In this document: in pieces, positions 1,004 to 16,447 of the stretch
Numbering within the stretch: the first letter of the stretch is position 1
How the letters are laid out: each line of letters begins with the position of its first letter
Assembly (NCBI GenBank): GCA_963743565.1
Contig: CAVUQD010000002.1
Span: 113,604-177,603 of the forward strand
Reading direction: 5' to 3'
DNA length: 64,000 nt
Source of the DNA: an uncultured Alphaproteobacteria bacterium
GTDB taxonomy: Bacteria; Pseudomonadota; Alphaproteobacteria; Rhizobiales; Beijerinckiaceae
Made by a program: the position numbers and the translations under genes
Notes under the pieces: model-generated
The model's database searches: none
Told to the model about the DNA's origin: nothing
What the model saw: only the letters and a program-made list of their open reading frames with translations

Positions 1004-2377
1004 ATGATGTATTCGATCGACCTGCAAGGAACCCGTTACCGGTTCGACGACCTGAAGTCGCTGATGGCGAAGGCGACGCCGCTGCGTTCCGGCGACTGCC
1101 TCGCGGGCGTCGCCTCTGAGAGCGCCGTCGAGCGCGTTGCGGCGCAGATGCGCCTCGCCGATCTTCCGCTCTCGACCTTCCTCGCCGAGCCGCTCATCCC
1201 CTATGAGGACGACGAGGTGACGCGGCTCATTTTCGACACGCATGACAAGCGCGCCTTCGCGCCGATCGCCAGCCTCACCGTCGGAGAGTTCCGCGACTGG
1301 CTGCTCTCCGATTCCGCCACGCGCGAAACGCTCGCTGCCCTCGCGAAGGGGATCACGCCGGAGATGGCGGCCGCGGTTGCGAAGATTTCGCGCAACCAGG
1401 ACCTCATCGCGATTGCTTCAAAAATCCGCGTCGTCACGCGCTTTCGTAACTCGATCGGTCTGCCCGGCACGCTCTCCTCGCGCATTCAGCCCAATCATCC
1501 AACCGACGATCCCAAGGGCGTGCTCGCCAGCATCATCGACGGGCTGCTGCTCGGCGCCGGCGACGCGGTGATCGGAATCAATCCCGCATCCGACAGCCCG
1601 CGACGCTGCGAAGAATTGCTGCTGCTCATCGATGAATTGCGTGAAACCCTGGAGATCCCTACGCAGTCTTGCGTGCTCGCCCATGTCACGACCACGCTGC
1701 CGCTCATCGCGAAAGGCGCGCCCGTCGATCTCGTCTTTCAGTCGATCGCCGGGACCGAAGCCGCGAACCGCAGCTTTGGGGTGGACCTCGCACTGCTGCG
1801 CGAAGCGGACGACGCGGCGCACAATCTGCGACGCGGAACCGTCGGTAATAACGTCATGTATTTCGAAACGGGCCAGGGCAGCGCGCTTTCGGCGGAGGCG
1901 CATCATGGCTGCGATCAGCAGACGCTCGAGGCGCGCGCCTATGCAGTGGCCCGCGCCTTCGATCCGCTGCTCGTCAACACGGTCGTCGGCTTCATCGGAC
2001 CGGAATATCTCTTCGACGGCAAGCAGATCATACGCGCCGGGCTCGAGGATCACTTCTGCGGCAAGCTGATGGGCCTGCCCATGGGGTGCGACGCCTGCTA
2101 CACGAATCACGCCGAAGCCGATCAGAACGACATCGACGATCTTCTCACGCTCCTGGCGGTTGCCGGCGTGAATTATGTGATGGGCGTTCCGGGCGCCGAC
2201 GACGTCATGCTGAATTATCAGAGCACGTCCTATCACGATGTCGCGGCCGTTCGAAAAATTCTTAATCTCTCGCCTGCTCCGGAATTCGCGGAATGGCTTG
2301 CGCGGATGCGCGGCGGCGATCTCACGCAGGCGCAAGCGTTGCCCTCGTCCTTCCAGCGTCTCTTGGCGAAAGTTTGA
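1004..2377 (+). CDS. eutB: Ethanolamine ammonia-lyase large subunit
   Basis: 457 aa; motifs RSGDxLAGVA, QPNHPTDD, MYFETGQGSALS, GLEDHFCGKLMGLPMG. Confidence 0.97.
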   Translation: MMYSIDLQGTRYRFDDLKSLMAKATPLRSGDCLAGVASESAVERVAAQMRLADLPLSTFLAEPLIPYEDDEVTRLIFDTHDKRAFAPIASLTVGEFRDWLLSDSATRETLAALAKGITPEMAAAVAKISRNQDLIAIASKIRVVTRFRNSIGLPGTLSSRIQPNHPTDDPKGVLASIIDGLLLGAGDAVIGINPASDSPRRCEELLLLIDELRETLEIPTQSCVLAHVTTTLPLIAKGAPVDLVFQSIAGTEAANRSFGVDLALLREADDAAHNLRRGTVGNNVMYFETGQGSALSAEAHHGCDQQTLEARAYAVARAFDPLLVNTVVGFIGPEYLFDGKQIIRAGLEDHFCGKLMGLPMGCDACYTNHAEADQNDIDDLLTLLAVAGVNYVMGVPGADDVMLNYQSTSYHDVAAVRKILNLSPAPEFAEWLARMRGGDLTQAQALPSSFQRLLAKV

Positions 2378-2380
2378 AGC

Positions 2381-3151
2381 ATGGCGGAGAAACTGCCGGC
2401 GATTGACGGTTTGGCGGCGCTGAAAGCCTCGACTCCGGCGCGCATCTTTCTGCCGTGCGCGGGCGCGGCGGTCGCGACGGGGGCCAATCTCGCCTTCCAG
2501 CTGGCGCACGCGCAGGCGCGCGACTCGGTCGAGGATCATCTCGACACACAAGCCCTCATGAAAGAACTGCACCAGCGCGGGTGGGAATCCGTGTGCGTCG
2601 AGAGCGCGGCGCCGAACCGGCGCGCCTATCTGATGCGGCCCGATCTCGGACGGCGCCTCGACGATCCCTCGCGCGCGCGTCTCTCAACGCTCGCGGGCGA
2701 TGGCGATATCCTCTTCGTCGTCGCGGACGGCCTGTCCGCACGAGCCGTCACAGCGCATGCGCTACCGCTGCTCGATGCGGCGCTGCCTGCCTTTGGCGCC
2801 GAAGGCTGGAAGATCGGCCCCGTCATCGTCGTTTCTCAGGGCCGCGTGGCGATTGGCGACGAGATTGGCGAGGTCTTGGGCGCAAAGCTCGTCGCCGTTC
2901 TCATTGGAGAGCGGCCCGGTCTCTCCTCGCCCGATAGTCTCGGGGCGTATCTCACTTTCTCCCCGCGCATCGGCCGCACGGACGCCGAGCGCAATTGCCT
3001 GTCGAATATTCGCAGAGAGGGAATGTCCTACGCGGAGGCGGCGGCGCGGTTGCTTTATCTCGCCACCGAAGCGCGTCGGAGGAATTTATCCGGCGTAGAA
3101 CTGAAGGACGAGTTCCAAAGTGCGGCGTCCGCTCGCCTTGTCGCGGGCTGA
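2381..3151 (+). CDS. eutC: Ethanolamine ammonia-lyase small subunit
   Basis: 256 aa; STPARI, AHAQARD, RxAYLMRPDLGRRL, IGERPGLSSPDSLG, DAERNCLSNI; follows eutB. Confidence 0.96.
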   Translation: MAEKLPAIDGLAALKASTPARIFLPCAGAAVATGANLAFQLAHAQARDSVEDHLDTQALMKELHQRGWESVCVESAAPNRRAYLMRPDLGRRLDDPSRARLSTLAGDGDILFVVADGLSARAVTAHALPLLDAALPAFGAEGWKIGPVIVVSQGRVAIGDEIGEVLGAKLVAVLIGERPGLSSPDSLGAYLTFSPRIGRTDAERNCLSNIRREGMSYAEAAARLLYLATEARRRNLSGVELKDEFQSAASARLVAG

Positions 3152-3247
3152 ATTCGCCGGGCCGCGCGCAAAGAAGGGCATGCACAAGGTAATGAGCGCC
3201 GCCGATGCGGGGGCCAAAAGTTTATTGAACTTCAATAGGATCGATTG

Positions 3248-3361
3248 TGGCTGCCCTTCCTGGACACGTATCGAACCATGTGCATTGCTCCGGAGCCAAA
3301 TTTCCGTTGCATCTTGGAGGACCTTCGAGTGATGCAGTCCATGGCGTCGGGCATCAGGTAA
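3248..3361 (+). other. Left attachment junction encoding a displaced recombinase C-terminus (WLPFLDTYRTMCIAPEPNFRCILEDLRVMQSMASGIR*)
   Basis: The frame starting at the TGGCTG core is open to TAA at 3359-3361. It begins with the same WL dipeptide at which the recombinase enters the tRNA. WLPFLDTYRT resembles termini recalled for this recombinase family. Confidence 0.7.
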
Positions 3362-3410
3362 CGACCGTTTTCCTAATTCGCGTCTGCTGCGGGATCGCTA
3401 CCGGACTCGC

Positions 3411-4310
3411 TCACCCCTGAACTCGGGCGCAGCGAAAGCCAATATGATTGATGCGTTCGCGCGGAGCGCTCGCGGTCCGGCCGGCCGAGCGGACGCCCGA
3501 CGCGTAGTCGGCCCAGGAACCCCCGCGCAAGACGCGCCCTCCAGCCCCATCGTTCAGCCAGACGGAGCCGTCTGCCGGGGCGCCGACATAGTCAGGGTGA
3601 TCGGGATCTTCGACCCATTCCCAGACGTTTCCAAGCATGTCCTGAAGGCCCCAGGGATTCGCCCGCTTGCGCTTCACGCGCCGAGTTCCCGCGCTTTGAT
3701 GCGCGTATTGCTTTCCGGACCAAGACGAGCTGTCCCAGAGCGCCCCGAGATCGTAATCCCTGCCACTGTTGCCTCCGTACCAAGCGATCGGGTCGAGGAT
3801 CGGCGCGTTGTTCAGTCCCAGAATCTCCAGATCGCCCGCGTATGTCGCCGCCGTAGTCCCGGCCCGGCAGGCGTATTCCCATTGCGCCTCGCTCGGCAGG
3901 GAGAGGCCGAGACCGGGAACGAGCGCGTTCACCTTGCTGATAAACGCTTGCGCGTCGTCCCACGAAACTCTTTCGACCGGGCGATCAGGGCTTTGAAAAT
4001 CGCTTGGATTGTTCCCCATCACCGCGCTCCAGAGTGCTTGCGTGCATGGGGTCTCGAACATCCAGAACCCTCGCGCGATCGTCACCTCATGCTGCGGGCC
4101 TTCGTTCTTGGCCCGCCCCGCCTCCGACTCTGGCGATCCCATTAGGAAGTTGCCCGGCGGAATCCAGCGTAAGAGCTGATTGGCGTCCTGAACCGCGAAG
4201 CCAAGAAACAGGCCGTGACTATCCTGCCCCCATTCGCTGGCCCAATCGGGCGGAGCACCCTCGATCAGCCGCCGCCGCTCACTAAGAAGGTCGACCGCAA
4301 GTGCTCTCAT
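3411..4310 (-). CDS. Stand-alone FGE-sulfatase (SUMF1-like, C-type lectin fold) domain protein; DGR-target-like
   Basis: RWIPPGNFLMGSP, LPSEAQWEYACRAG, NPWGLQDMLGNVWEW, RVLRGGSW...IGFRCAR; ATG at 4310 preferred over the longer ORF start at 4385. Confidence 0.9.
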   Translation of the reverse strand: MRALAVDLLSERRRLIEGAPPDWASEWGQDSHGLFLGFAVQDANQLLRWIPPGNFLMGSPESEAGRAKNEGPQHEVTIARGFWMFETPCTQALWSAVMGNNPSDFQSPDRPVERVSWDDAQAFISKVNALVPGLGLSLPSEAQWEYACRAGTTAATYAGDLEILGLNNAPILDPIAWYGGNSGRDYDLGALWDSSSWSGKQYAHQSAGTRRVKRKRANPWGLQDMLGNVWEWVEDPDHPDYVGAPADGSVWLNDGAGGRVLRGGSWADYASGVRSAGRTASAPRERINHIGFRCARVQG

Positions 4311-4659
4311 CCTTGTGTGCCCCGAATGCTGACGTGAAAAAGCGCGCCGGCGAGCCTTGGAGGAGGCTTCGCCCGTTTCTAGCACGCCGACGGCCCTTCG
4401 TTTTCGCCATTCGGAACATCGAGAACTCGTCTTGGGGGAAAATCTCTCCGTAGGCGATCTTGCCGCAGTTTATCGACGCCGGCCGGCTTTCTGCGTTCTG
4501 TTCCAGATAAGTGACGCAGAGCGCCCAGAAGCTCGTCTGCCCGTCCTGAACGAAATTCTTCTCGACCGAGACGATCTTGTGGCTGGTCAAGAGCTGGTTC
4601 AACGTCGCGCTGGCCTCGTCGTCGCCTCGACAAGAGCAGGCGAAGACTTTCACGCGCAT
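4282..4659 (-). pseudogene. Truncated N-terminal half of the HRDC-domain accessory protein typical of DGR cassettes
   Basis: ATG 4659 with GGAGG RBS. MRVKVF...HKIVSVEKNFVQDGQTSFWALCVTYLE...KIAYGEIFPQDEFSMF resembles recalled DGR-associated HRDC proteins; similarity stops near 4410, before the HRDC domain. Confidence 0.6.
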
Positions 4660-4766
4660 CCTCCTGCCTCCTCTCGCGCTCTCGCGTGGTCGGCCCCGCC
4701 AGCGACCCACCGACGCAGGCGGTCGGCTCGCTCCGCTCGAACTCGCCGCGTCCCTCCCGGCTCCCC

Positions 4767-7700
4767 TCACTCCTGAACTCGGGCGCAGCGAAAGCCGATA
4801 ATGTCGGCGCGCACGTCCGGAGCGTACGCGCTCCGGTGCGCGGAGCGGACGTTCCGCGCGTCGAGGCCCCAGGAACCGCCGCGCAAGACGCGCAAAGCAG
4901 CCATAGCTGCTTGCGATGCTCCAGCCTCTACATCCGATCTGCTCCCCAAGCGAAGCAACTGTTTTGCCGCGTCGAGCAATCCCGCGCGCCGGACGGAGCC
5001 GCGCCAAGGCCTGCCGTCGCTGGGCGCCGCCTCATAGTCGCCGTGCCAATCGTCCGCGCACCATTCCCAGACATTTCCGTGCATTTCGTAAAGACCCCAG
5101 AGGTTAGGCGGCAGGCTCGCCACGGGAGCCGTCTCCTTGCGATAAAGCACTTTGGTCGCGTCGTCGTAAGGGTAGTTGCCATCGTAATTGACGAGCTCGG
5201 GCGTAATGTTCTCGCCGAAGCTGAACGGCGTCGTCGTCCCCGCCCGGCAGGCGTATTCCCACTGCGCCTCGCTGGGCAAAGAAAGACCGAGATCGGGAAT
5301 GAGCGCATTGATCTTGTCCAGGAACTGCTGCGCGTCGTCCCATGAGACTTGCTCGACGGGGCGGTCGGGGGCCTGAAACCGACTCGGATTTGTGCCCATC
5401 ACGGCCGTCCACAAGGCCTGAGAACAGGCCGTGTCGAAGAGCCAGAAGCCCTGTGCGATCGTGATCTCGTGCCGGGGACCCTCCGAAGTCAAACGCCCCC
5501 GCTCGGTCTCCGGCGAGCCCATCAGGAACCGCCCGGGATTGATCCAGCGCAGCTTCTGGCGCACGGGGTCTGCTGCGCCCGGCGCCTCGATCCCGGCCCA
5601 CAGGCCGAAGCGATCGCGCCCTATCGCTGACGCCCATTTCGGGCGCGCCAGGGGCTCGACCGTCAGGCGCTCACAGTCGCTGCGAATGACGAAGGACCCG
5701 GCGCGCGGAAAAATCGCGGCGCCCTCGCCGCCGACGAATAGCCGCGCGCGCTCGCCGCCGCCGGACGGCGCCGCTGCGGTCGGCCTCGCTCCGCTCCGCT
5801 GAACTCGCCGCGTCTCCGCCGGCTCCGCGCCGTCCTGAACTCGGGCGCAGCGAAAGCCGACATACTGGTTTTCCTCCTGCCGCTTGTATTGATACCGGGA
5901 CGCCGCACGGACGGCGTGCGCGCTGCTCTCCCAAGAACCGCCGCGCACGACACGCCCGACAGCCTTATTTGCGTCATCCCAAACTGAACCGTCGTTCGGC
6001 GCGCCTCGGTAGCCCCGATGCCAAGCGTCGGCGCACCACTCCCAAACATTGCCGTGCATCTCGTAGAGGCCCCAGGCATTGGCTGGAAGACTTCCGACAG
6101 GGACACGCCGCTGACGCCAACGTCCCTTAAACTCTTGATACTGAAAATCATCACCGAAGTAATTCACCTGATCCACAGTGACGGTCTCGCCAAAGCTGAA
6201 CGGTGTCGTCGTCCCAGCCCGGCAGGCGTATTCCCACTGAGCCTCGCTCGGGAGGGTGAGGCTGAGCCCGGGAATGAGGGCGTTGATCTTGTCGATGAAC
6301 TCCTGTGCGTGGTCCAAAGAGACGCGGACAACAGGCTCGGCGGCGGCGCCTGACCATCGCCACTCCCTCATCACCGCCTCCCAAAGGACGTTAGGGCATA
6401 CCGTGTCAAACAGCCAGAAACCCCTTGAGATGTTTACTTTGTGCCGTGGACCTTCGTTGGCGTCCCGCCCCTTCTCGTTGTTCGGCGACCCCATCATGAA
6501 CGTGCCCGGCGGGATCCACCGCAAGCGCTGCTTCACAAAGCCGTCCCGGCCTTCGATAGCGAATTCAAACCAGGGTCCAATCTTGTCGCAGCCGAAATCG
6601 CTGACGAAGGGAGGGACGGCGCCGTCCTTCCAGAAAGGCGGCGAATCGAGCGCGAAATCATCTTCGCGCGCCGTGATCCCGCAGACGAGGCTGCCATGAG
6701 ACAGGGCTTCGCTCGCGAAGGCGCGCAGCCGACCGCCCAGCTGACGGATCATGAAGCGTCGCGGCGGACGATCCGATGACGTCACTCGGGTCGCCACATA
6801 ACCCGGCGGCGCGGCGGGGTCGTCTCCGCGCGCCGAGCGCCAGAGCGACATGAAGGCGCGGCGCTCGGCGGCCTCGTCTGGCGTCCAGTCTTCCCAGCGC
6901 TCCAGCGGCAAACGGTGCGTCAAGCCCCAGAACCAGCCCATCTCGCCCGCCGACGCCTTCTCGGCCTCCGCAGCTTCCGCCAGCGCGAGGAAGTCCTCAG
7001 CAAGGCTCCGGCGGACGCGCGCGGGAACCAGAACCCGCGAGGATGCTGGGAGACTGCGGCATTCCTCCGCAAACACCCAGCGCATCCCGTCGCGCCAGGA
7101 ATGGCGCGGGGGATGGAAACGCCATCGATAGATCAGCTTCAGGACATCACGACGTTCCTCTGGAGCGAGCGTGGCGAACTCCTTGAGCAGCGCCTCGCGC
7201 GCGGCGACGTCGGGCGTCGCGCCGATCGGATGGCGTCGCGCCACCGCGGCGTCCTGCCAAAATAGCCCTTCGAGCCCCGGGTCGGCCCTTCCGCCAAGCA
7301 GCCAACGCAGCCCGCGGAGCAGCCCGGGCTCGATGCTGAGCGCGGGCGAGGCCAGGACCTGCAGCTGCCGCAGCCTCTTCTCGCGCTCCTCCAGCGTTAT
7401 CGGCTCGCCAATCCGGCGCCAGCCGATGAGGGACCACACCCTTGAGAGCTGCGCCACGGCGCGCAAGGGCGCCGCGGGCAGCACGGCGACCCCGCGCCCG
7501 CCGACGCGGCGCAAGCGCTCGCCATACTCGGCCCAGGCCCGCAACTCTTCGCCCTCCGGCTCTGAGAGCAGTCCGAGATCACTGAAAACGACGACGGTCG
7601 CGCCCGAGGGCGGCGGCGCCTGGTCGCGCCAATCGACGGGGATCACCCCGCCCTGCGGAAACAGCCGTTTCAGATCGTGATAGAGCGCCAGATAATCCTC

Positions 7701-8249
7701 GCGATAAGGGGTCAGACGCTCGCTCTTGTCGAAGAGCAGCAGCAACTCTCCACCCCAGCGGCGACGCTTCCGGCGCGGCCATCGCTTGAGTGGGATGCCG
7801 TCCGCAATCCGCCGCAGCGCCGCGTCCACGTCGAGGTCCTGTCCATCCCGCTGCCGCGCCGCCGCGCCGCGCAACAGCGCCGCCACATCCGCGAAGGATC
7901 CGAGCGGCGGGATGGGCGGCGGCGCGTCCCAACCGTCATCTTCCGGTGTGGAGGCGGCTTCCTCCAGCCAACGCGTCGCCTCGGTCTCCTGTTGCCCGGC
8001 CTTTTCAGCGACGTCGCCTTCATAAGCGACAACGCGCCAGAACAACGGCTCCTCGGCCTGGGGCTCCGACGGCGGCGGCGGCGGAGGAGGAGGAGGCGGG
8101 GGCGTCTGGAGCGGCTGCGCGGGCGGCTTTGACGGGCGAAGTTCGTAGCCGAGGAACTCCGCGACCTCGAGCTGGCGCCCGTGCGTCAGCGCCCTGAGCA
8201 GATCGGCGCGCCCTCCGATCGAGCGCCTGCAGATTGCCTCACGCGACAT
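4767..8249 (-). CDS. MoxR-associated vWA-like protein with poly-Pro linker and two C-terminal FGE-sulfatase domains
   Basis: 1160 aa; PPPPPPPPPP linker; vWA-like LLLLFDKSE and VVVFSDLG (degenerate MIDAS); two complete FGE domains each ending RGGSW...GFRCARVQ. Confidence 0.85.
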   Translation of the reverse strand: MSREAICRRSIGGRADLLRALTHGRQLEVAEFLGYELRPSKPPAQPLQTPPPPPPPPPPPSEPQAEEPLFWRVVAYEGDVAEKAGQQETEATRWLEEAASTPEDDGWDAPPPIPPLGSFADVAALLRGAAARQRDGQDLDVDAALRRIADGIPLKRWPRRKRRRWGGELLLLFDKSERLTPYREDYLALYHDLKRLFPQGGVIPVDWRDQAPPPSGATVVVFSDLGLLSEPEGEELRAWAEYGERLRRVGGRGVAVLPAAPLRAVAQLSRVWSLIGWRRIGEPITLEEREKRLRQLQVLASPALSIEPGLLRGLRWLLGGRADPGLEGLFWQDAAVARRHPIGATPDVAAREALLKEFATLAPEERRDVLKLIYRWRFHPPRHSWRDGMRWVFAEECRSLPASSRVLVPARVRRSLAEDFLALAEAAEAEKASAGEMGWFWGLTHRLPLERWEDWTPDEAAERRAFMSLWRSARGDDPAAPPGYVATRVTSSDRPPRRFMIRQLGGRLRAFASEALSHGSLVCGITAREDDFALDSPPFWKDGAVPPFVSDFGCDKIGPWFEFAIEGRDGFVKQRLRWIPPGTFMMGSPNNEKGRDANEGPRHKVNISRGFWLFDTVCPNVLWEAVMREWRWSGAAAEPVVRVSLDHAQEFIDKINALIPGLSLTLPSEAQWEYACRAGTTTPFSFGETVTVDQVNYFGDDFQYQEFKGRWRQRRVPVGSLPANAWGLYEMHGNVWEWCADAWHRGYRGAPNDGSVWDDANKAVGRVVRGGSWESSAHAVRAASRYQYKRQEENQYVGFRCARVQDGAEPAETRRVQRSGARPTAAAPSGGGERARLFVGGEGAAIFPRAGSFVIRSDCERLTVEPLARPKWASAIGRDRFGLWAGIEAPGAADPVRQKLRWINPGRFLMGSPETERGRLTSEGPRHEITIAQGFWLFDTACSQALWTAVMGTNPSRFQAPDRPVEQVSWDDAQQFLDKINALIPDLGLSLPSEAQWEYACRAGTTTPFSFGENITPELVNYDGNYPYDDATKVLYRKETAPVASLPPNLWGLYEMHGNVWEWCADDWHGDYEAAPSDGRPWRGSVRRAGLLDAAKQLLRLGSRSDVEAGASQAAMAALRVLRGGSWGLDARNVRSAHRSAYAPDVRADIIGFRCARVQE

Positions 8250-9205
8250 GCTTCTTCAGCACGAATTCACGCACGGTCTTGAGCGCGTCCCGCTGCGCCG
8301 TCGGCTCGCCCTCATGCTGATGCGCCACGACGCGCAGCAAATCGAGATATTCGGCTTGACCGGGGCGCGGGCGCAGGTCTCCATGCGCAGTTCGATCCTC
8401 GAACACCATTTCCGCAGCGAGGCTTAGCGTTTCCCCGTCGCAGTTCGGGAAATGCGCCTTTCCACGCTGCACGAGCAAATCCATCAGTCTTGCCCTGTCG
8501 TCTGGCAGCGTCAGCGCCAGCACCAGGCAGCGGCGCAGAAAGGCGTCCGGCAGCGTACAGTTCTTCGTTTGTGGTGATCACGACGAGCGGCGCGGGTTCT
8601 TTCGCGTTGACGACGCCGCAGCCCGGCGGCGCGATCCGGCCAGAGCCGAGCGCCTCAAGGAGTCCGTTGGGGACCTCCGCCTCCGCCTTGTCGATCTCGT
8701 CGATCAGGACGACGGAACCGTTGTCGGGATCGGCTTCCGCGCCACGCTCCGGGACATCCGTGCGGACGCGCGCGCGCGCGCTCGCCGCCGCTTGACGCTC
8801 CGCGCTGGGCCAGTCGAAGCCCCACCACAGCGGCCCGGGAACGACGAATTTTTCGATCGCGAAATCGGCGCGCGCGTCCTCGACCGATTTGTCGCGCAGC
8901 GCGCCGGCGAGTTGCGCCTCGGCGAGACGCCCTAGGGAATCGAGCCGCCAAAGGAGATCACGCGACTCGGTTTGGCTGTCGACCACTTGCTGAATGAACG
9001 TTCGCTTCAGCATCTTGGCCGCGGCGCGCGCCAACTGGCTCTTCCCGATCCCCGGTTCCCCGCGAACGAGCAGCGGCCGGCCCGCGGCTAAGGCCGCATT
9101 CAGCGCGCGCACCTCGCGCTCGTCGAAGAGATGCACCTGATCGGCGATGGCGCCATGCGGCTCGAGATCGGCACGAAGCCCTGGAGTGTAACTAATGAAC
9201 TTCAT
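8239..9205 (-). pseudogene. MoxR-family AAA+ ATPase with a +1 frameshift near 8559
   Basis: Walker A GEPGIGKS, Walker B VLIDEIDKA. Deleting one base at 8559 restores ITTNEERTLPDAFLRRCLVL and joins the 8312-9205 and 8239-8523 ORFs. A sequencing error cannot be excluded. Confidence 0.85.
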
Positions 9206-10590
9206 TTGGTGAGTTCACCGTCGTGAAGCATGTCAAGAACCGCCCACAGCACATTCAATTCGTTTTTTGCTGCATCGCGTCCGTCGTCGAGCGAGAAAAA
9301 GGCGATTTCCGGATAGGCGGCCTTCGCCTTGTCGATCGCGGCGTCGACGTCGCGCTTGTATTCTTCGTACCAGAAAACGTTCCTATTCATGCGTTGTCCA
9401 ATCGCGATTTCCCACTCCGGCGCATTGACGACGAAATAGTAGCGAGTCTTCTTTGTCCTCAGATTTTTCTGCAGACGCTCGCGCGCGCGTTTCCGTCTTT
9501 CCTCCGGCGCCAGAACTTCCTCGCCGAGCAACAGCAGCTTGGAAAAAACAAATTCGTCCAGCAGTTCCGTGAAGCGATCGAAAGTGGCTGGACCGCAGGC
9601 TGGCGGAAGTTGATAGGCGAACTCGCCATGCGGGCGCTGCGGCCTTACTGCGCCGCCGCCCAGCCGAGCGAAAGCGGGCGAACGTCCGAGCAGCCGAGCT
9701 TCCACTAGCTCCGCACCGGTCACGCTCTGCGCCGGAATCGGCACGACGACGGCCGCGCCGTCGCGCGCTTGTTCACGAATCTCCTCTATTTCCTCAGGCT
9801 CGTAAATCAGCAGGACGAATTCTCGAGTCGCGAGCTTGACCGCCCGCGCCCCAGCTGCATCATCGAGAACCGGACCTGACAATTCCGTATGGGCCTCAGC
9901 GAGCTTTTCGAGAGCCGTTTCCACATCCAGGCTCGCCAGCTCGTCGAAGACGACTCCACTACGGCGGCGAAGATCCGGTTCTGCGGAGGGCTTACTGAGC
10001 AGCTTCTCGATTTGGCCGACTGCCGCCGGCCATTTTGCGAGCGCCGCCGCGAAACGCTCCCGGATCGCGGCTTTCTCTTTCTCCGCCTTCTGCGCCGCCA
10101 GCGCCCGCTTCGCCGCGTCGTCTTCCGACGTTTGCGAGGGCAACTCCCGCGTCTGCTCAAGGCCGTAGAGGCGCCGGTAGCGCTCCTCAATCAGCCCGGC
10201 GATTTCCACGGCCTTGCGATTCGTGACGAGAGGAAAAACGTCCTGCTCACGGCCCTCGGGAACCTGCGTCATGTCGAAGCGAAATGGCAAGACTTGCTCG
10301 GATTGCTGCAGGAATAAGCGTTCGCGGATCACGCGTGCCTCGACGCGGGTCCAATTCTTCTCAAGATAGACCTTGGAGAAAAAGGGTACAACAAGTTCCG
10401 CCATGGAGTAGATATTCTGCAGCTTCAAATCAGAGTTGTAGCCGATCACCTCACCTTCGTGCCAGTTGTCATAAAAAATGCGCTCCTTATCGAAGCTCGC
10501 CAGCAAGGCCTCCGCGACCTTCTCGACATACGCACGATTCTCGCCTGCGAAAGAGAGGGCGACTGCGAAACGACGAGGCGTCAGCGTCAT
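9202..10590 (-). CDS. TIR-domain protein with an uncharacterised helical C-terminal region
   Basis: FAVALSFAGENRAYVEKVAEAL...IFYD...YLEKNWTRVEAR is a bacterial TIR (TIR_2) signature; ATG 10590; ATGA overlap with moxR. Confidence 0.85.
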   Translation of the reverse strand: MTLTPRRFAVALSFAGENRAYVEKVAEALLASFDKERIFYDNWHEGEVIGYNSDLKLQNIYSMAELVVPFFSKVYLEKNWTRVEARVIRERLFLQQSEQVLPFRFDMTQVPEGREQDVFPLVTNRKAVEIAGLIEERYRRLYGLEQTRELPSQTSEDDAAKRALAAQKAEKEKAAIRERFAAALAKWPAAVGQIEKLLSKPSAEPDLRRRSGVVFDELASLDVETALEKLAEAHTELSGPVLDDAAGARAVKLATREFVLLIYEPEEIEEIREQARDGAAVVVPIPAQSVTGAELVEARLLGRSPAFARLGGGAVRPQRPHGEFAYQLPPACGPATFDRFTELLDEFVFSKLLLLGEEVLAPEERRKRARERLQKNLRTKKTRYYFVVNAPEWEIAIGQRMNRNVFWYEEYKRDVDAAIDKAKAAYPEIAFFSLDDGRDAAKNELNVLWAVLDMLHDGELTK

Positions 10591-10949
10591 TAGCACGCCC
10601 CCACCGGCCCTGCCGCCGCCTTGAATCCCTCCCGTCGACGCTCGGTGACGGCGGCGATCTTGCCGCTGAACTGCCCGCGGCCAGGGGCCTTCAAAAGAAA
10701 GAAGCTCTTCATCCAGCATTACCGACAATGGCATCTGGCGTCTACATAGCATGGCGTCGGGACTAATGCATTCCCGCGCGGTGCGCGGACAGCACGGCCT
10801 TTTTCCGGCCTGTCCGGGGCCGCCGGCAACGCCATCGGATAGCCGATCTTCGCGGGCGTCAGGTTCAGCGATCTGCACGGCCAAAAGGACATTGCGATCG
10901 GCGGCTTGTAAGGCTTGGCTCCATGTGTCGTCGACTGTTTAGCTCCCAG

Positions 10950-11761: not shown

Positions 11762-13300
11762 GTGATCGACATGGAGTTATTGAGCGTCATCCGACGCTGG
11801 CGACATCGGCAACATCTCTCGATCCGGGAGATCGCGCGACGAACGGGGCTGTCGCGGAACACGGTACGCAAGTATCTGCGCTCGGACAGCGTTGAGCCGA
11901 AGTTCAACATCCCTGACCGCCCGAGCAAGCTGGATCCCTACGCTGACAAGCTGGCGCAGATGTTGCGGTTGGAGGCGGCGAAGTCGCGCAAGCAGAAGCG
12001 GACGGTCAAGCAGTTGCACGCCGATTTGGTCGCCCTCGGCTACGACGGCTCCTACAATCGCGTGGCGGCCTTCGCGCGCGAGTGGAAGGCGGCGCGGCAT
12101 CGGGAGCAACAGACCTGTGGCCGCGGCGCTTTCGTGCCGCTGGCGTTTCTGCCCGGCGAGGCGTTCCAGTTCGACTGGTCGGAGGACTGGGCGGTCATCG
12201 CGGGCGAGCGGATCAAACTGCAGGTCGCCCAGTTCAAGCTCTCCTACAGTCGCGCGTTCATCCTGCGGGCTTACCCGCAGCAGACGCATGAGATGCTGTT
12301 TGACGCCCACAACCACGCCTTCCGCGTGCTGGGCGGCGTGCCGCGGCGCGGGATCTACGACAACATGCGCACCGCCGTCGACAAGGTCGGGCGCGGCAAG
12401 GAGCGGCAAGTCAACGCGCGTTTCGCGGCCATGGTCAGCCACTTCCTGTTCGAGGCCGAGTTCTGCAACCCAGCCTCTGGCTGGGAGAAAGGGCAGATCG
12501 AGAAGAACGTGCAGGACGCGCGGCACAGGCTCTGGCAGCCGACGCCGAACTTTCCTTCCCTGGCGGCGCTGAACGACTGGCTGGAGACGCGATGCCGGGA
12601 GCTATGGGCCGAGATTCCGCATGGCGCGCAGGCGGGCACGGTCGCCGACGCCTGGAGCGAGGAAGCGCAACACTTGATGCAGCTTCCCCGCCCCTTCGAC
12701 GGCTTCGTCGAACACACCAAGCGCGTCTCGCCGACATGTCTCATCCACCTGGAGCGCAATCGCTACAGCGTCCCGGCCTCGTTCGCCAATCGCCCCGTCA
12801 GCGTGCGGGTCTATCCTGAACGCATCGTCGTGGCCGCCGAGGGGCAGGTTGTCTGCGAGCATCGGCGCGTCTTCGCCCGCTCCCACGATCGCAAGAGCGC
12901 GACGATCTACGACTGGCGCCACTATCTCGCGGTCATCCAGCGCAAACCCGGCGCCTTGCGCAACGGCGCGCCCTTCGCCGAACTGCCGCCCGCCTTCCGG
13001 GCCTTGCAACAGCGCATACTCAAGACGCCAGGCGGCGACCGCGAGATGGTCGAGATCCTCGCCCTGGTCCTCCAGCACGACGAGCAGGCCGTGCTCGCCG
13101 CCGTCGAACTGGCGTTGGAGGCGGGCGCGCCGACCAAGACGCATATCCTGAACGTGCTGCACCGGCTGGTCGATGGAAAACCGATCGACGCGCCGCCAGT
13201 GAAGCCGCCCAGCGCGCTGACGCTCACCACCGAACCGCAGGCCAATGTCGAGCGCTATGACGCCCTGCGCAAAGCCCGGGAGGCGCGCCATGCGTCATAA
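11762..13300 (+). CDS. istA: IS21 transposase IstA
   Basis: N-terminal [27 protein letters not shown] (DDE triad). Confidence 0.95.
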
Positions 13301-14084
13301 TCCCGCCGCCGGCGCCATCGTCATCATGCTGCGCAGCCTCAAAATGCACGGCATGGCGCAAGCCGTCGGCGAACTCACCGAGCAAGGCGCTCCGGCCTTC
13401 GAGGCCGCGCTGCCGATCTTGTCGCAGCTTCTGAAGGCGGAAACAGCCGATCGGGAAGTCAGATCCACCGCCTACCAGCTCAAGGCCGCGCGCTTTCCAA
13501 ACTATCGCGATCTCGCCGGCTTCGACTTCGCCAGCAGCGAGGTCAATGAAGCTCTCGTTCGCCAGCTTCACCGCTGCGAGTTCCTGGAGGATGCCCATAA
13601 CGTTGTCTTGGTCGGCGGCCCCGGAACGGGCAAGACGCATCTCGCCACGGCGATCGGCGTCCAGGCCATCGAGCATCACCGCAAGCGCGTCCGGTTCTTC
13701 TCCACCGTCGAACTCGTCAACGCGCTCGAGCAGGAAAAGCTTCAAGGAAAAGCCGGGCAGATTGCGGCGCGGCTCACACACGCCGATCTCGTCATCCTCG
13801 ACGAGCTCGGCTATCTGCCGTTCAGCGCCTCCGGCGGCGCCTTGCTCTTCCACCTGCTGAGCAAGCTCTACGAACGCACCAGCGTCATCATCACGACCAA
13901 CCTCGGCTTCGGCGAATGGGCCGCCGTGTTCGGCGACGCGAAAATGACGACGGCGCTCCTCGACCGCCTCACCCACCGCTGCCACATCCTCGAGACCGGA
14001 AACGACAGCTTCCGCTTCAAGGACAGCTCGGCGAAAGCCGCTAAACCCACAAAGGAGAAAACCCGCAACTTGACGAACGCCTGA
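13290..14084 (+). CDS. istB: IS21 helper ATPase IstB
   Basis: [32 protein letters not shown]; ATG 13290 overlaps the istA end. Confidence 0.95.
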
Positions 14085-14155: not shown

Positions 14156-14767
14156 GGCTGCCAGCTTTTCCGAGTGCGCCTGTTGGGAGAGGGCCTATCA
14201 ACAGAACAGCTTGCTGCAAACCCGATACTCGAACTGGGAGCACCACCGAGAGACAAAGCACGCGCTGGCCGAATGAATGTGGAGTTCATTCCAATTCTAT
14301 ACGCCACGTTCAGCGAACAAACCGCGATTGCTGAAGGCCGCCCTAGCCTAGATGACGAGATCGCAATAGCTACCTTCACAACACTTTACGATCTCAAAGT
14401 TTTTGATTTTACTGTATTTTCTGCAGCGCTTGGCAAAAACTTTGAGGCCGCCATCGAACACACGCGCTATGATTTTATCGAACAGTTGGAACAGGAAATT
14501 AGCAAGCCTGTTCGAGCCTCGGATAAAGTCCGCCAATATATTCCGACTCAAATCGTTGCTGAGTACATACGAGAGCGATTCAACTGTGACGGGATTATAT
14601 ATAGATCATCAATGATCAAAGACCGCTCACTCGACGCGAGGAATATTGCGTTGTTCGACAAGCGCCGACCTTTTCTCGGTGGCACAGAAGCCTCTCTCAG
14701 CTTCGTCAATTACGTTATCAAGGAGGTCTGGGACGTCAAATACGTGGTCGGCAAGTCGCCCTTTTAA
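14156..14767 (+). pseudogene. RES-domain (NAD+-targeting toxin family) protein, 5'-truncated by IS21
   Basis: Frame is open right up to the IS end (GCQLFRVRL); RMNVEFIPILYAT..TAIAEGRP, PTQIVAEYIR..DGIIYRSS are RES motifs; AT-rich. Confidence 0.75.
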
Positions 14768-14779
14768 GCGGGAGAGCCA

Positions 14780-14811
14780 TTGCGATCGACGACGTTTAGT
14801 ATATACTAAAC
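14780..14811 (+). promoter_or_regulatory. Recombinase promoter with a perfect 18-bp palindromic operator
   Basis: TTGCGA (14780-14785), 16 nt, TATACT (14802-14807); palindrome GTTTAGTATATACTAAAC at 14794-14811; ATG 7 nt after the -10 element. Confidence 0.65.
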
Positions 14812-14813
14812 AC

Positions 14814-16406
14814 ATGAAGACATCCGTCAAGCAAGGCCGCGCCGTTGATCTCGCCCGTAAACAGGCGGTGGTCTATGCCCGCGTCTCCTCCAAGGAGCAG
14901 GAGAAGGAAGGCTTCTCAATCCCGGCGCAGTTGAAGTTGCTGAAGGAATACGCCACCGCAAACGGCTTCGTGGTCGCCGAGGAATATGTGGACGTGGAGA
15001 CCGCCAAGCAGACGGGCCGCGCCGCCTTCGGCGAGATGGTGGTCTATCTCAAGGCGCATCCCTCAGTCCGCGTGATGCTGGTCGAGAAGACAGACCGGCT
15101 TTACCGAAACCTCAAGGATTGGGTGACGATCGACGAACTCGATGTGGAGATCCACTTCCCCAAGGAAGGCGTGGTGCTCTCGCGCAATTCGCGCTCCTCG
15201 GAAAAGTTCATGCACGGCATCAAGGTGCTGATGGCGAAGAACTACATCGACAATCTGTCCGAGGAAGCCCGCAAAGGCATGCAGGAAAAGGCCGAGCAAG
15301 GCATCTGGCCCACCAAGACGCCGCTCGGCTATCGCAACGTCACGGGATCGGACGGCAAGAAGGTCATCGAAGCCGACCCGGAGGTCGCCCCGCTCATCAC
15401 GAAGCTCTTCGAATGGTATGCGACCGGACAGCATTCGCTGCAGACCGCGGCGGCCAAAGCGCGAGCCGCCGGTCTCGCGCACCGAAGGAGCGGCACGCGG
15501 GTGCCCGTGAGCACGATTCACACGATCCTGCGCAACCGGCTTTACACGGGCTGGTTCGAGTGGAACGGCAAGCTCTATCGCGGAAAGCACGACGTCTTGG
15601 TCTCGGTCGAGCTTTGGGAGCGCGTGCAGGGCGTGCTGGATGGACGCCACGCCAGTAAAAACCGCCGCATGACGCACGACTTCGCCTTCTCGGGCCTGAT
15701 CGCCTGCGCAAAGTGCGGCTGCTCGGTGGTTGGGGAGATCAAGAAGCAGCAATACGTCTATTATCACTGCACGGGGTACGCCGATAAGTGCCGGGACGAG
15801 CCCGCTTCCTGTCGCCGCAAATATGTTCGCGAAGAGGTTTTGGAGCGGCAGTTCACGGAACTGCTTGGCCGGCTGCGCTTCGACGACGAGGTGCTCGAAT
15901 GGGTGCGCGAGGCGCTGCACGCCAGCCGCGCGGATGAGCGCAGAGAGCATGAGGACGCGATCAAGCGCCTGCGCGGGGAATACGACCGCCTGCAAGCTCG
16001 GATCGACGCGATGTATATCGACAAGCTGGACGGCAGGATCGGCGGCGACTTCTTCGACCGCATGGCAGGACAGTGGCGCGAGGAGCAGAGCCGCTGCCTG
16101 CGCGAGATCGAGCGCTGCCAGGAGGCCGAGCAGTCTTACATGGACGAGGGCGTGCGGCTTCTCGAACTCGCTCAAAACGCCCAAGCCCTGTTCGAACGTC
16201 AGCCGCCACGCGAAAAGCGGCGACTTCTCGATTTCGTGCTTTCGAACTGCTCATGGGAGGATGGCGAAGTGGTCGCCACCTTCCGCCAACCCTTTGATCT
16301 GTTAGCGCAAACGACGGCAGCAGCAGCGCGATGGGAGGCAACGGGAAGCGGAATTTCGATGAAAAGCGAGATTTGGCTGGGGGACCTGGATTCGAACCAA
16401 GATTAA
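14814..16406 (+). CDS. Large serine recombinase (resolvase + recombinase + zinc-ribbon domains)
   Basis: AVVYARVSSKEQ catalytic motif, EKTDRLYR, FSGLIACAKCG, YYHC; last codons overlap the tRNA-Gln 3' end. Confidence 0.95.
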   Translation: MKTSVKQGRAVDLARKQAVVYARVSSKEQEKEGFSIPAQLKLLKEYATANGFVVAEEYVDVETAKQTGRAAFGEMVVYLKAHPSVRVMLVEKTDRLYRNLKDWVTIDELDVEIHFPKEGVVLSRNSRSSEKFMHGIKVLMAKNYIDNLSEEARKGMQEKAEQGIWPTKTPLGYRNVTGSDGKKVIEADPEVAPLITKLFEWYATGQHSLQTAAAKARAAGLAHRRSGTRVPVSTIHTILRNRLYTGWFEWNGKLYRGKHDVLVSVELWERVQGVLDGRHASKNRRMTHDFAFSGLIACAKCGCSVVGEIKKQQYVYYHCTGYADKCRDEPASCRRKYVREEVLERQFTELLGRLRFDDEVLEWVREALHASRADERREHEDAIKRLRGEYDRLQARIDAMYIDKLDGRIGGDFFDRMAGQWREEQSRCLREIERCQEAEQSYMDEGVRLLELAQNAQALFERQPPREKRRLLDFVLSNCSWEDGEVVATFRQPFDLLAQTTAAAARWEATGSGISMKSEIWLGDLDSNQD

Positions 16407-16447
16407 CGGAGTCAGAGTCCGCTGTTCTACCGTTGAACTATCCCCCA
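16374..16447 (-). tRNA. tRNA-Gln (anticodon CTG)
   Basis: 74 nt; acceptor stem TGGGGGA/TCCCCCA, anticodon arm GCGGA CT CTG AC TCCGT, GGTTCGAATCC T-arm, encoded CCA. Confidence 0.97.

Follow-up and report, generated by a model that had tools for sequence, protein, structure and literature searches.

The locus examined here raises the question of whether a short open reading frame, lodged between two genes for FGE-domain proteins, is what is left of the core of a diversity-generating retroelement (DGR), a bacterial hypermutation cassette that in its working state alters the tips of sensor proteins, and what the loss of that core would mean for the variable regions (VRs) of the neighboring genes. 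The analyzed DNA, called the window below, is a stretch of 64,000 nucleotides from contig CAVUQD010000002.1 of an uncultured alphaproteobacterium (assembly GCA_963743565.1), and positions are counted from its first letter. The region is a remnant of an HRDC-type DGR within a TIR/MoxR/vWA-FGE conflict-system island beside a tRNA-Gln gene. The genes around the remnant are as follows:

1004-3151: eutBC, the island boundary on one side
3411-4310, minus strand: stand-alone FGE-sulfatase/C-type-lectin-fold target, 299 aa (Pfam FGE-sulfatase, E = 1e-46)
4767-8249, minus strand: 1160-aa protein with a vWA-like N-region and two FGE domains (two Pfam FGE-sulfatase matches, E = 1e-81)
8312-9205, minus strand: MoxR-like AAA+ ATPase (Pfam AAA_5, E = 2e-11; weak bpMoxR match)
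9202-10884, minus strand: TIR-domain protein, 560 aa (Pfam TIR_2, E = 7e-9)
11762-14084: IS21 istA/istB, island backbone on the other side
14174-14767: RES-domain protein, island backbone
14646-16406: large serine recombinase, its 3' end overlapping tRNA-Gln
16374-16447, minus strand: tRNA-Gln, adjoining the island

The start of the 299-aa FGE gene (ATG at 4310) was placed by a conserved start column in relatives, and the gene is collinear with the 298-300-aa FGE genes that lie downstream of the template (TR) in two intact loci, L006 and L004. The best vWA match of the 1160-aa protein falls below the family cut-off (VWA_CoxE, E = 0.0028, 17.6 bits against 26.4 bits), and the MoxR/vWA-FGE arrangement upstream of the HRDC gene is conserved in most relatives with enough flanking sequence. 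The MoxR-like ATPase shares 42-56% identity with its counterpart upstream of vWA-FGE in nearly all relatives where that gene is present, and the 560-aa TIR protein is a candidate for the effector-bearing third component of a ternary system. PADLOC gave no matches.

Between the two FGE genes lies the small reading frame in question, hereafter the stub ORF, which divides into two parts:

4659-4282, minus strand: stub ORF, 125 aa
4414-4659, minus strand: accessory-gene remnant, codons 1-82 (N-terminal beta-alpha-beta-beta domain, linker and the first ~4 HRDC residues)
4282-4413, minus strand: read-through tail, codons 83-125 plus stop (from the ORF list and a nucleotide origin test)

The ATG of the stub ORF has GAGAGGAGGCAGGAGG just 5' of it and is separated from the stop of the vWA/2xFGE gene (4767-8249, 1160 aa) by 107 nt, in agreement with a first-pass annotation, made from the sequence of the window, that had noted an RBS-preceded ORF right after the vWA-FGE stop. 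Its tail runs 29 nt into the next gene. No profile in Pfam, NCBIfam or PADLOC matches the peptide, so that the profile search proposed in that annotation came back empty, whereas a word-indexed search of 5.8 billion proteins did return relatives: HRDC-domain (PF00570) proteins of 162-164 aa with 54-65% identity to the stub. The likeness to the N-terminal half of DGR-associated HRDC proteins claimed for the stub is thus real, and it is limited to residues 1-82. The alignment is strong up to residue ~82 (...PQDEFSMF) and collapses beyond, placing the end of homology at residues 82-86, and an intact homologue used as a query against the genome matched the window over residues 1-86 only. Because homology ends at 82 and the HRDC domain of intact relatives spans residues 79-145 (Pfam), the stub retains the family-specific, non-HRDC N-domain, and of the HRDC domain hardly more than a trace (~4 residues). 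The earlier description of a surviving HRDC accessory stub was therefore right about the N-terminal part of the accessory gene and needs one refinement: as an HRDC-type accessory protein, the stub has the family N-domain and lacks the HRDC domain (PF00570, ~79-145).

An AF2 model of the stub, built with 47 homologues, predicts a confident beta-alpha-beta-beta domain at residues 1-52 (pLDDT 89-96), a helix of lower confidence at residues 76-96 and a disordered tail at residues 97-125 (pLDDT ~40). A fold search of the PDB with the N-domain model found no significant match (best E = 0.09), with a vague ACT/RRM-like beta-alpha-beta-beta resemblance, and a PDB sequence search with the accessory proteins matched only the HRDC part of the relatives.

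To what kind of locus the stub once belonged can be read from its relatives. A scan of 185,579 species genomes for the accessory protein yielded 52 loci, in Proteobacteria, Planctomycetota, Verrucomicrobiota, Nitrospinota and other groups. A DGR reverse transcriptase (RT) gene directly follows or overlaps the accessory gene in 50 of the 52 (the exceptions being L070, at a contig edge, and L073, with an HRDC fragment only); in the window, the next gene is the FGE target instead. Where the flank suffices, the usual gene order is MoxR, vWA-FGE, HRDC, RT, TR, FGE, with a large FGE-bearing gene upstream of HRDC wherever the contig reaches that far, and with MoxR and vWA-FGE upstream and a small FGE gene downstream in most loci with enough flank. 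On these contigs an HRDC gene of 162 aa is overlapped by ~10 nt by an RT gene of 339 aa (RVT_1), followed by a TR-bearing gap and an FGE gene of 298-300 aa; the contig of the closest homologue, P0002, likewise reads HRDC-RT-gap-gene. Intact relatives compared at the same position, downstream of vWA-FGE, thus carry HRDC, RT, TR and FGE, as the first-pass annotation had expected. No intact copy of the island was found in 36 same-genus and 24 same-order genomes, in which only RecQ HRDC domains were matched. The HRDC gene nearest to the stub encodes a protein of ~65% identity and is 73-80% identical at the DNA level. From these comparisons, the ancestral cassette would have read, on the minus strand, vWA-FGE-FGE (with VR1 and VR2), accessory gene (N-domain plus HRDC), RT, TR, structured spacer and FGE (with VR3).

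Set against these relatives, the window shows a deletion whose edges can be mapped to the base:

4413-4414, minus strand: deletion junction, HRDC codon 82 (TTC) joined to CGAATGGCGAAAAC of the post-TR spacer
4342-4413, minus strand: 3' half of a conserved structured spacer, now inside the stub ORF

The junction is based on nucleotide alignments to L004, L005 and L006, a multiple alignment of post-TR regions and a codon view, is known from one assembly, and places at 4413/4414 the break that had been read near 4410. Both of its flanks are collinear with L004 and L006: blastn aligns window positions 6531-5051 and 4893-4499 with L006, over its upstream target and HRDC N-half, and 4280-3408 is collinear with the downstream FGE gene of intact loci. 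Compared with L006 and L022, ~1.46 kb is missing between the flanks, from HRDC residue 83 to the end of the gene, with RT, TR and the 5' half of the spacer. An internal deletion of the retroelement core, as first proposed, is therefore borne out, with one correction: Avd had been counted among the deleted parts, and the intact relatives of this HRDC-type DGR have no avd gene. We infer a single internal deletion, ~1.46 kb long, that would have fused accessory codon 82 to a point midway along the post-TR spacer; with it would have gone the HRDC domain, RT and TR in full, and the spacer's 5' half. No close relative of the island was found in the databases, and the deletion may be older than the acquisition of the island by this genome.

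We considered two accounts of how the break arose. A deletion mediated by short repeats is conceivable, since relatives read TTCGCCAAR where the HRDC gene breaks off and TCGCCRAAAC within the spacer. The other, that the HRDC domain begins at a deletion hotspot, was rejected, both because other breakpoints are scattered at residues ~70, 82, 88, 93, 120 and 138 and because an N-domain query finds only deletions that spare the N-domain.

The sequence on the far side of the junction comes from a structured element that lies just 3' of the TR in intact loci. The ~70 nt past the break (4413-4342) match the post-TR segment of L004, L005 and L006 with 76-78% identity (blastn, E = 2e-10 and 4e-8), and identity is 78-81% to spacer positions 1889-1955 in L004 and ~4090-4164 in L006. 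In a multiple alignment with 11-13 relatives, the window has the invariant motifs GAAAC...AAGGGCCGyCGGyGTG...AAGGCTCGCCGGC and lacks the end of the TR, the first hairpin and the CCTGAACAGA box. The remnant keeps a long stem (GTCGGCG...CGCCGGC) with an inner hairpin and still folds into the 3' stem at -32.3 kcal/mol. Intact copies of the structured RNA were seen just 3' of the TR at L006:4020-4175, L022:1816-1965, L028:9913-10070 and 10 other loci, and RNAalifold on 13 intact relatives gives 26 base pairs, 14 of them with compensatory changes. The post-TR element matches no Rfam family, and a promoter and terminator scan of positions 3200-5000 returned nothing relevant.

Position and covariation are what point to a function for this spacer. 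In BPP-1, the Sp region is a conserved structured segment 3' of TR that recruits RT-Avd, supplies the priming 2'-OH and is required for priming (PMC6182149). By analogy, the post-TR RNA may be a counterpart of this priming region (Handa et al., 2018; PMC6182149): both are structured, non-coding segments directly 3' of TR. The likeness is positional, with no claim of sequence similarity, and the window holds the 3' half only. A covarying post-TR RNA in HRDC-type DGRs may help to define the functional DGR RNA of that class.

The 125-codon ORF is accordingly a pseudogene-like fusion of an intact small N-domain (residues 1-82) with 43 codons of former non-coding RNA, and its tail is probably a meaningless peptide read from what was a non-coding spacer. 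Similar fusions and losses occur elsewhere in the family. In L056 (10001-10552), HRDC residues 1-138 are fused to RT residues 281-331 and the TR is kept; L071 (4157-5180) has a deletion across the HRDC/RT junction; L073 (10049-10204) has an HRDC fragment only; and in the metagenomic proteins P0027, P0056 and P0087 the N-domain continues into Asn-rich, TR-encoded sequence or into the C-terminal part of an RT. Cores of the same DGR family have thus decayed by internal deletion repeatedly and independently (L056, L071, L073, P0027, P0056, P0087). Another unusual use of the N-domain was seen in P0010 (1424 aa), where 25 separate stretches match accessory N-domain residues 36-65, which suggests a repeat protein made from part of the N-domain motif.

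Could the stub nevertheless be a functional, selected short protein, with the N-domain acting alone? Its N-domain is intact and confidently folded in the model (pLDDT > 90), its RBS and start codon are kept, and an exhaustive, profile-free search with residues 1-82 returned 588 relatives, among them many metagenomic N-domain proteins without detectable HRDC. Most of these short proteins, however, are visibly truncated, frameshifted or fused to TR- or RT-derived sequence, whereas 40 of the 53 full-length members (145-175 aa) have the HRDC domain. The tail of the stub, moreover, derives from non-coding RNA, the model predicts it to be disordered, and in GC-rich DNA a 43-codon open frame is nothing unusual. 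We consider a working short protein unlikely. A related speculation, to which we likewise give only a small chance, is that the deletion was an adaptive lock-in of four successful sensor tips, including that of a remote TIR-FGE protein described below, and that the N-domain stub, possibly with the 3' half of the spacer, was retained to serve the MoxR/vWA-FGE/TIR system in some way independent of the DGR. If so, the N-domain fusions of P0027, P0056, P0087, L056 and L071 would represent a recurrent, selected way of switching off a DGR.

It is also conceivable that the accessory gene was not cut at codon 82 at all and runs on to about residue 107 through an HRDC domain that is frameshifted and degenerate, with the deletion beginning further downstream. 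Both tblastn and MAFFT do align the protein beyond codon 82, with matches at A-K, G-PA and FT in the tail. At the nucleotide level, however, local alignment of the tail DNA against the post-TR spacers of five relatives gives z-scores of 5.4-24.9 relative to shuffled sequences, whereas the HRDC C-halves of the same five relatives give -0.1 to 2.9; from this contrast it follows that the stub tail is translated spacer. The tail also holds the invariant spacer motifs CGGCGTG...AAGGCTCGCCGGC, and an uncut gene is highly improbable. The spacer at window positions 4330-4359 happens to translate as QGSPARFFTS, which mimics the HRDC motif GVPAYALFTNE and lures tblastn and MAFFT into a longer HRDC alignment; by the nucleotide z-score test, we attribute this resemblance to chance.

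With the core deletion mapped, the question becomes what the targets record of past diversification. Four VRs were found in the genome:

5840-5955, minus strand: VR1, internal to the 1160-aa protein
4778-4893, minus strand: VR2, C-terminal in the 1160-aa protein
3422-3537, minus strand: VR3, in the 299-aa FGE protein
Contig C1, 780086-780216, minus strand: VR4, C-terminal in a 461-aa TIR-FGE protein

The remote target gene that carries VR4 (L075, C1:780082-781467, minus strand) lies outside the window, and a search of 24 same-genus genomes found no orthologue of it. Among VR2, VR3 and VR4, variable columns fall at adenines of the relatives' TRs in 19 of 30 cases, against 7 of 86 invariant columns (Fisher p = 5e-9); as a control, the three VRs of the intact locus L006 vary at 19 columns, all of them TR adenines and none a non-adenine. 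The adenine-position differences are, judging from these alignments, a footprint of past DGR activity. The constant 3' end GGCTTTCGCTGCGCCCGAGTTCAGG is kept in all four VRs, and the TRs of relatives read ...GAGCTCACG there.

Differences away from adenines are graded among the VRs. VR4 is nearly identical to the island's VR2 at non-adenine positions, and of the four non-A differences between them about three are plausibly adenines of the element's own lost TR. VR3 shows ~10 non-A differences from VR2 or VR4, and VR1 shows 23-26 from the other VRs, counts that would overstate drift if, as may be, some of these positions were adenines of the element's own lost TR. The last rewriting from a shared template seems to have reached VR2 and the remote VR4, and the pattern in VR3, and especially in VR1, is consistent with drift without a template. 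Rewriting of VR1 probably ceased long before that of the other VRs, and the gradient VR2 ≈ VR4 < VR3 < VR1 would give the relative order of time without template-directed overwriting. Directly after VR1, and in frame with it, comes a copy of the GC-rich post-VR element.

The first-pass annotation had reported no RT or template in the 64 kb and had left two options, that the VRs are frozen or that they are diversified in trans. The absence holds across the whole assembly, which comprises 4.25 Mb in 10 contigs and is 99.95% complete. A PF00078 search gave 0 matches in the 4.25 Mb genome (the same search gave RVT_1 in three control genomes), and tblastn of the genome with the DGR RTs of L004 and L006, the two closest, had a best E of 0.19, so that the genome-wide search for a DGR RT that the annotation called for ended with none. 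In blastn with the relatives' TRs, no TR was found in the genome; the queries match the four VRs only, each at the 3' end of an FGE coding sequence (last ~130 nt). Avd (PF05635) was also not found genome-wide, as had been stated for the window. Of the components of a functional DGR, the genome lacks RT and TR, its accessory gene has lost the HRDC domain with no Avd elsewhere, and what is present are FGE/C-type-lectin-fold proteins with a C-terminal VR and a conserved, TR-distinct 3' end (IMH-like). The locus is a DGR remnant, not a DGR.

Diversification in trans, by an RT and TR on a plasmid, a prophage or an unassembled replicon, would be in keeping with the fact that remote targets are normal for DGRs (one lies here on contig C1), and with 10 contigs an RT on an unassembled plasmid is conceivable. 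Yet the assembly has no RVT_1 domain, no tblastn match and no TR-like sequence beyond the four VRs, and VR3 and VR1 bear many non-adenine substitutions that an active TR would overwrite. Because the genome lacks RT, TR and Avd, such diversification is very unlikely and the VRs are frozen, which favors the first of the two options. The remaining alternative, that an intact HRDC-RT-TR segment exists and was skipped by an assembler confused by the ~130-nt repeats of the VR and TR copies, is highly improbable, given that the junction lies outside these repeats, that HRDC codon 82 and the post-TR spacer share few bases at most in relatives, and that a real RT and TR would be expected on some contig and none is found in 4.25 Mb at 99.95% completeness.

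Taking together the homology, the synteny, the junction, the missing RT and TR and the adenine-position pattern of the VRs, the best explanation, in which we have high confidence, is a decayed DGR left by deletion of its core, with its VRs frozen. Without RT and TR, mutagenic retrohoming would no longer take place, and the four VRs would be fixed alleles subject to ordinary mutation only. The MoxR, vWA-FGE and TIR genes are intact ORFs, and the sensor system is probably still functional with a fixed set of ligand-binding tips.

In its architecture, the ancestral element would belong with the HRDC-type DGRs (architecture C; Wu et al., 2018; PMC5758913), whose prototype is the Treponema denticola DGR (PMC4891356). 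Common to both are an HRDC accessory protein whose gene overlaps the RT, FGE/C-type-lectin-fold targets with C-terminal VRs, and multiple targets including a remote one; in the window, by contrast, the HRDC domain, RT and TR are deleted. The gene order of the intact relatives is HRDC, RT, TR, whereas in Treponema the accessory gene lies between TR and RT, and the relatives' accessory protein differs in having a distinct N-domain of ~55 aa with no Pfam family and no significant PDB match.

Orphan DGR targets that remain after core loss have been described in Treponema denticola isolates (Nimkulrat et al., 2016; PMC4891356). Like those, the targets here persist without RT or TR, and VR differences from related TRs fall mostly at adenines; the T. 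denticola targets were read as leftovers of DGR loss. The present case differs in that the deletion scar is kept (the stub and half of the post-TR spacer), making the event mappable to the base, and in its host system, a MoxR/vWA/TIR conflict island here as opposed to surface lipoproteins in T. denticola.

DGR-diversified VMAP and MoxR-vWA ternary conflict systems are likewise known (Kaur et al., 2020, PMC7159879; Dore et al., 2024, PMC10907252), and the cassette architecture of the relatives matches these published MoxR/vWA systems (PMC7159879, PMC10907252). Unlike in those systems, the DGR here is dead, vWA and VMAP are not confirmed above family thresholds, and the host genome is of a size typical of unicellular alphaproteobacteria; the cassette is present in 0 of 36 same-genus species, and the island sits by tRNA-Gln with a serine recombinase. 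Since both orphan DGR targets (PMC4891356) and DGR-linked MoxR/vWA systems were already described, the finding is a known kind of decay, unusually well resolved, and no new mechanism. It provides a base-resolved natural DGR knockout in a MoxR/vWA-FGE/TIR system, in which the sensor and effector genes are intact and the diversifier is gone, and the strain offers a ready negative control for the question of whether such systems need ongoing hypermutation to work. It also adds to the evidence that DGR cores are often lost while their targets persist, as in T. denticola, which matters for surveys that count targets only near RTs.
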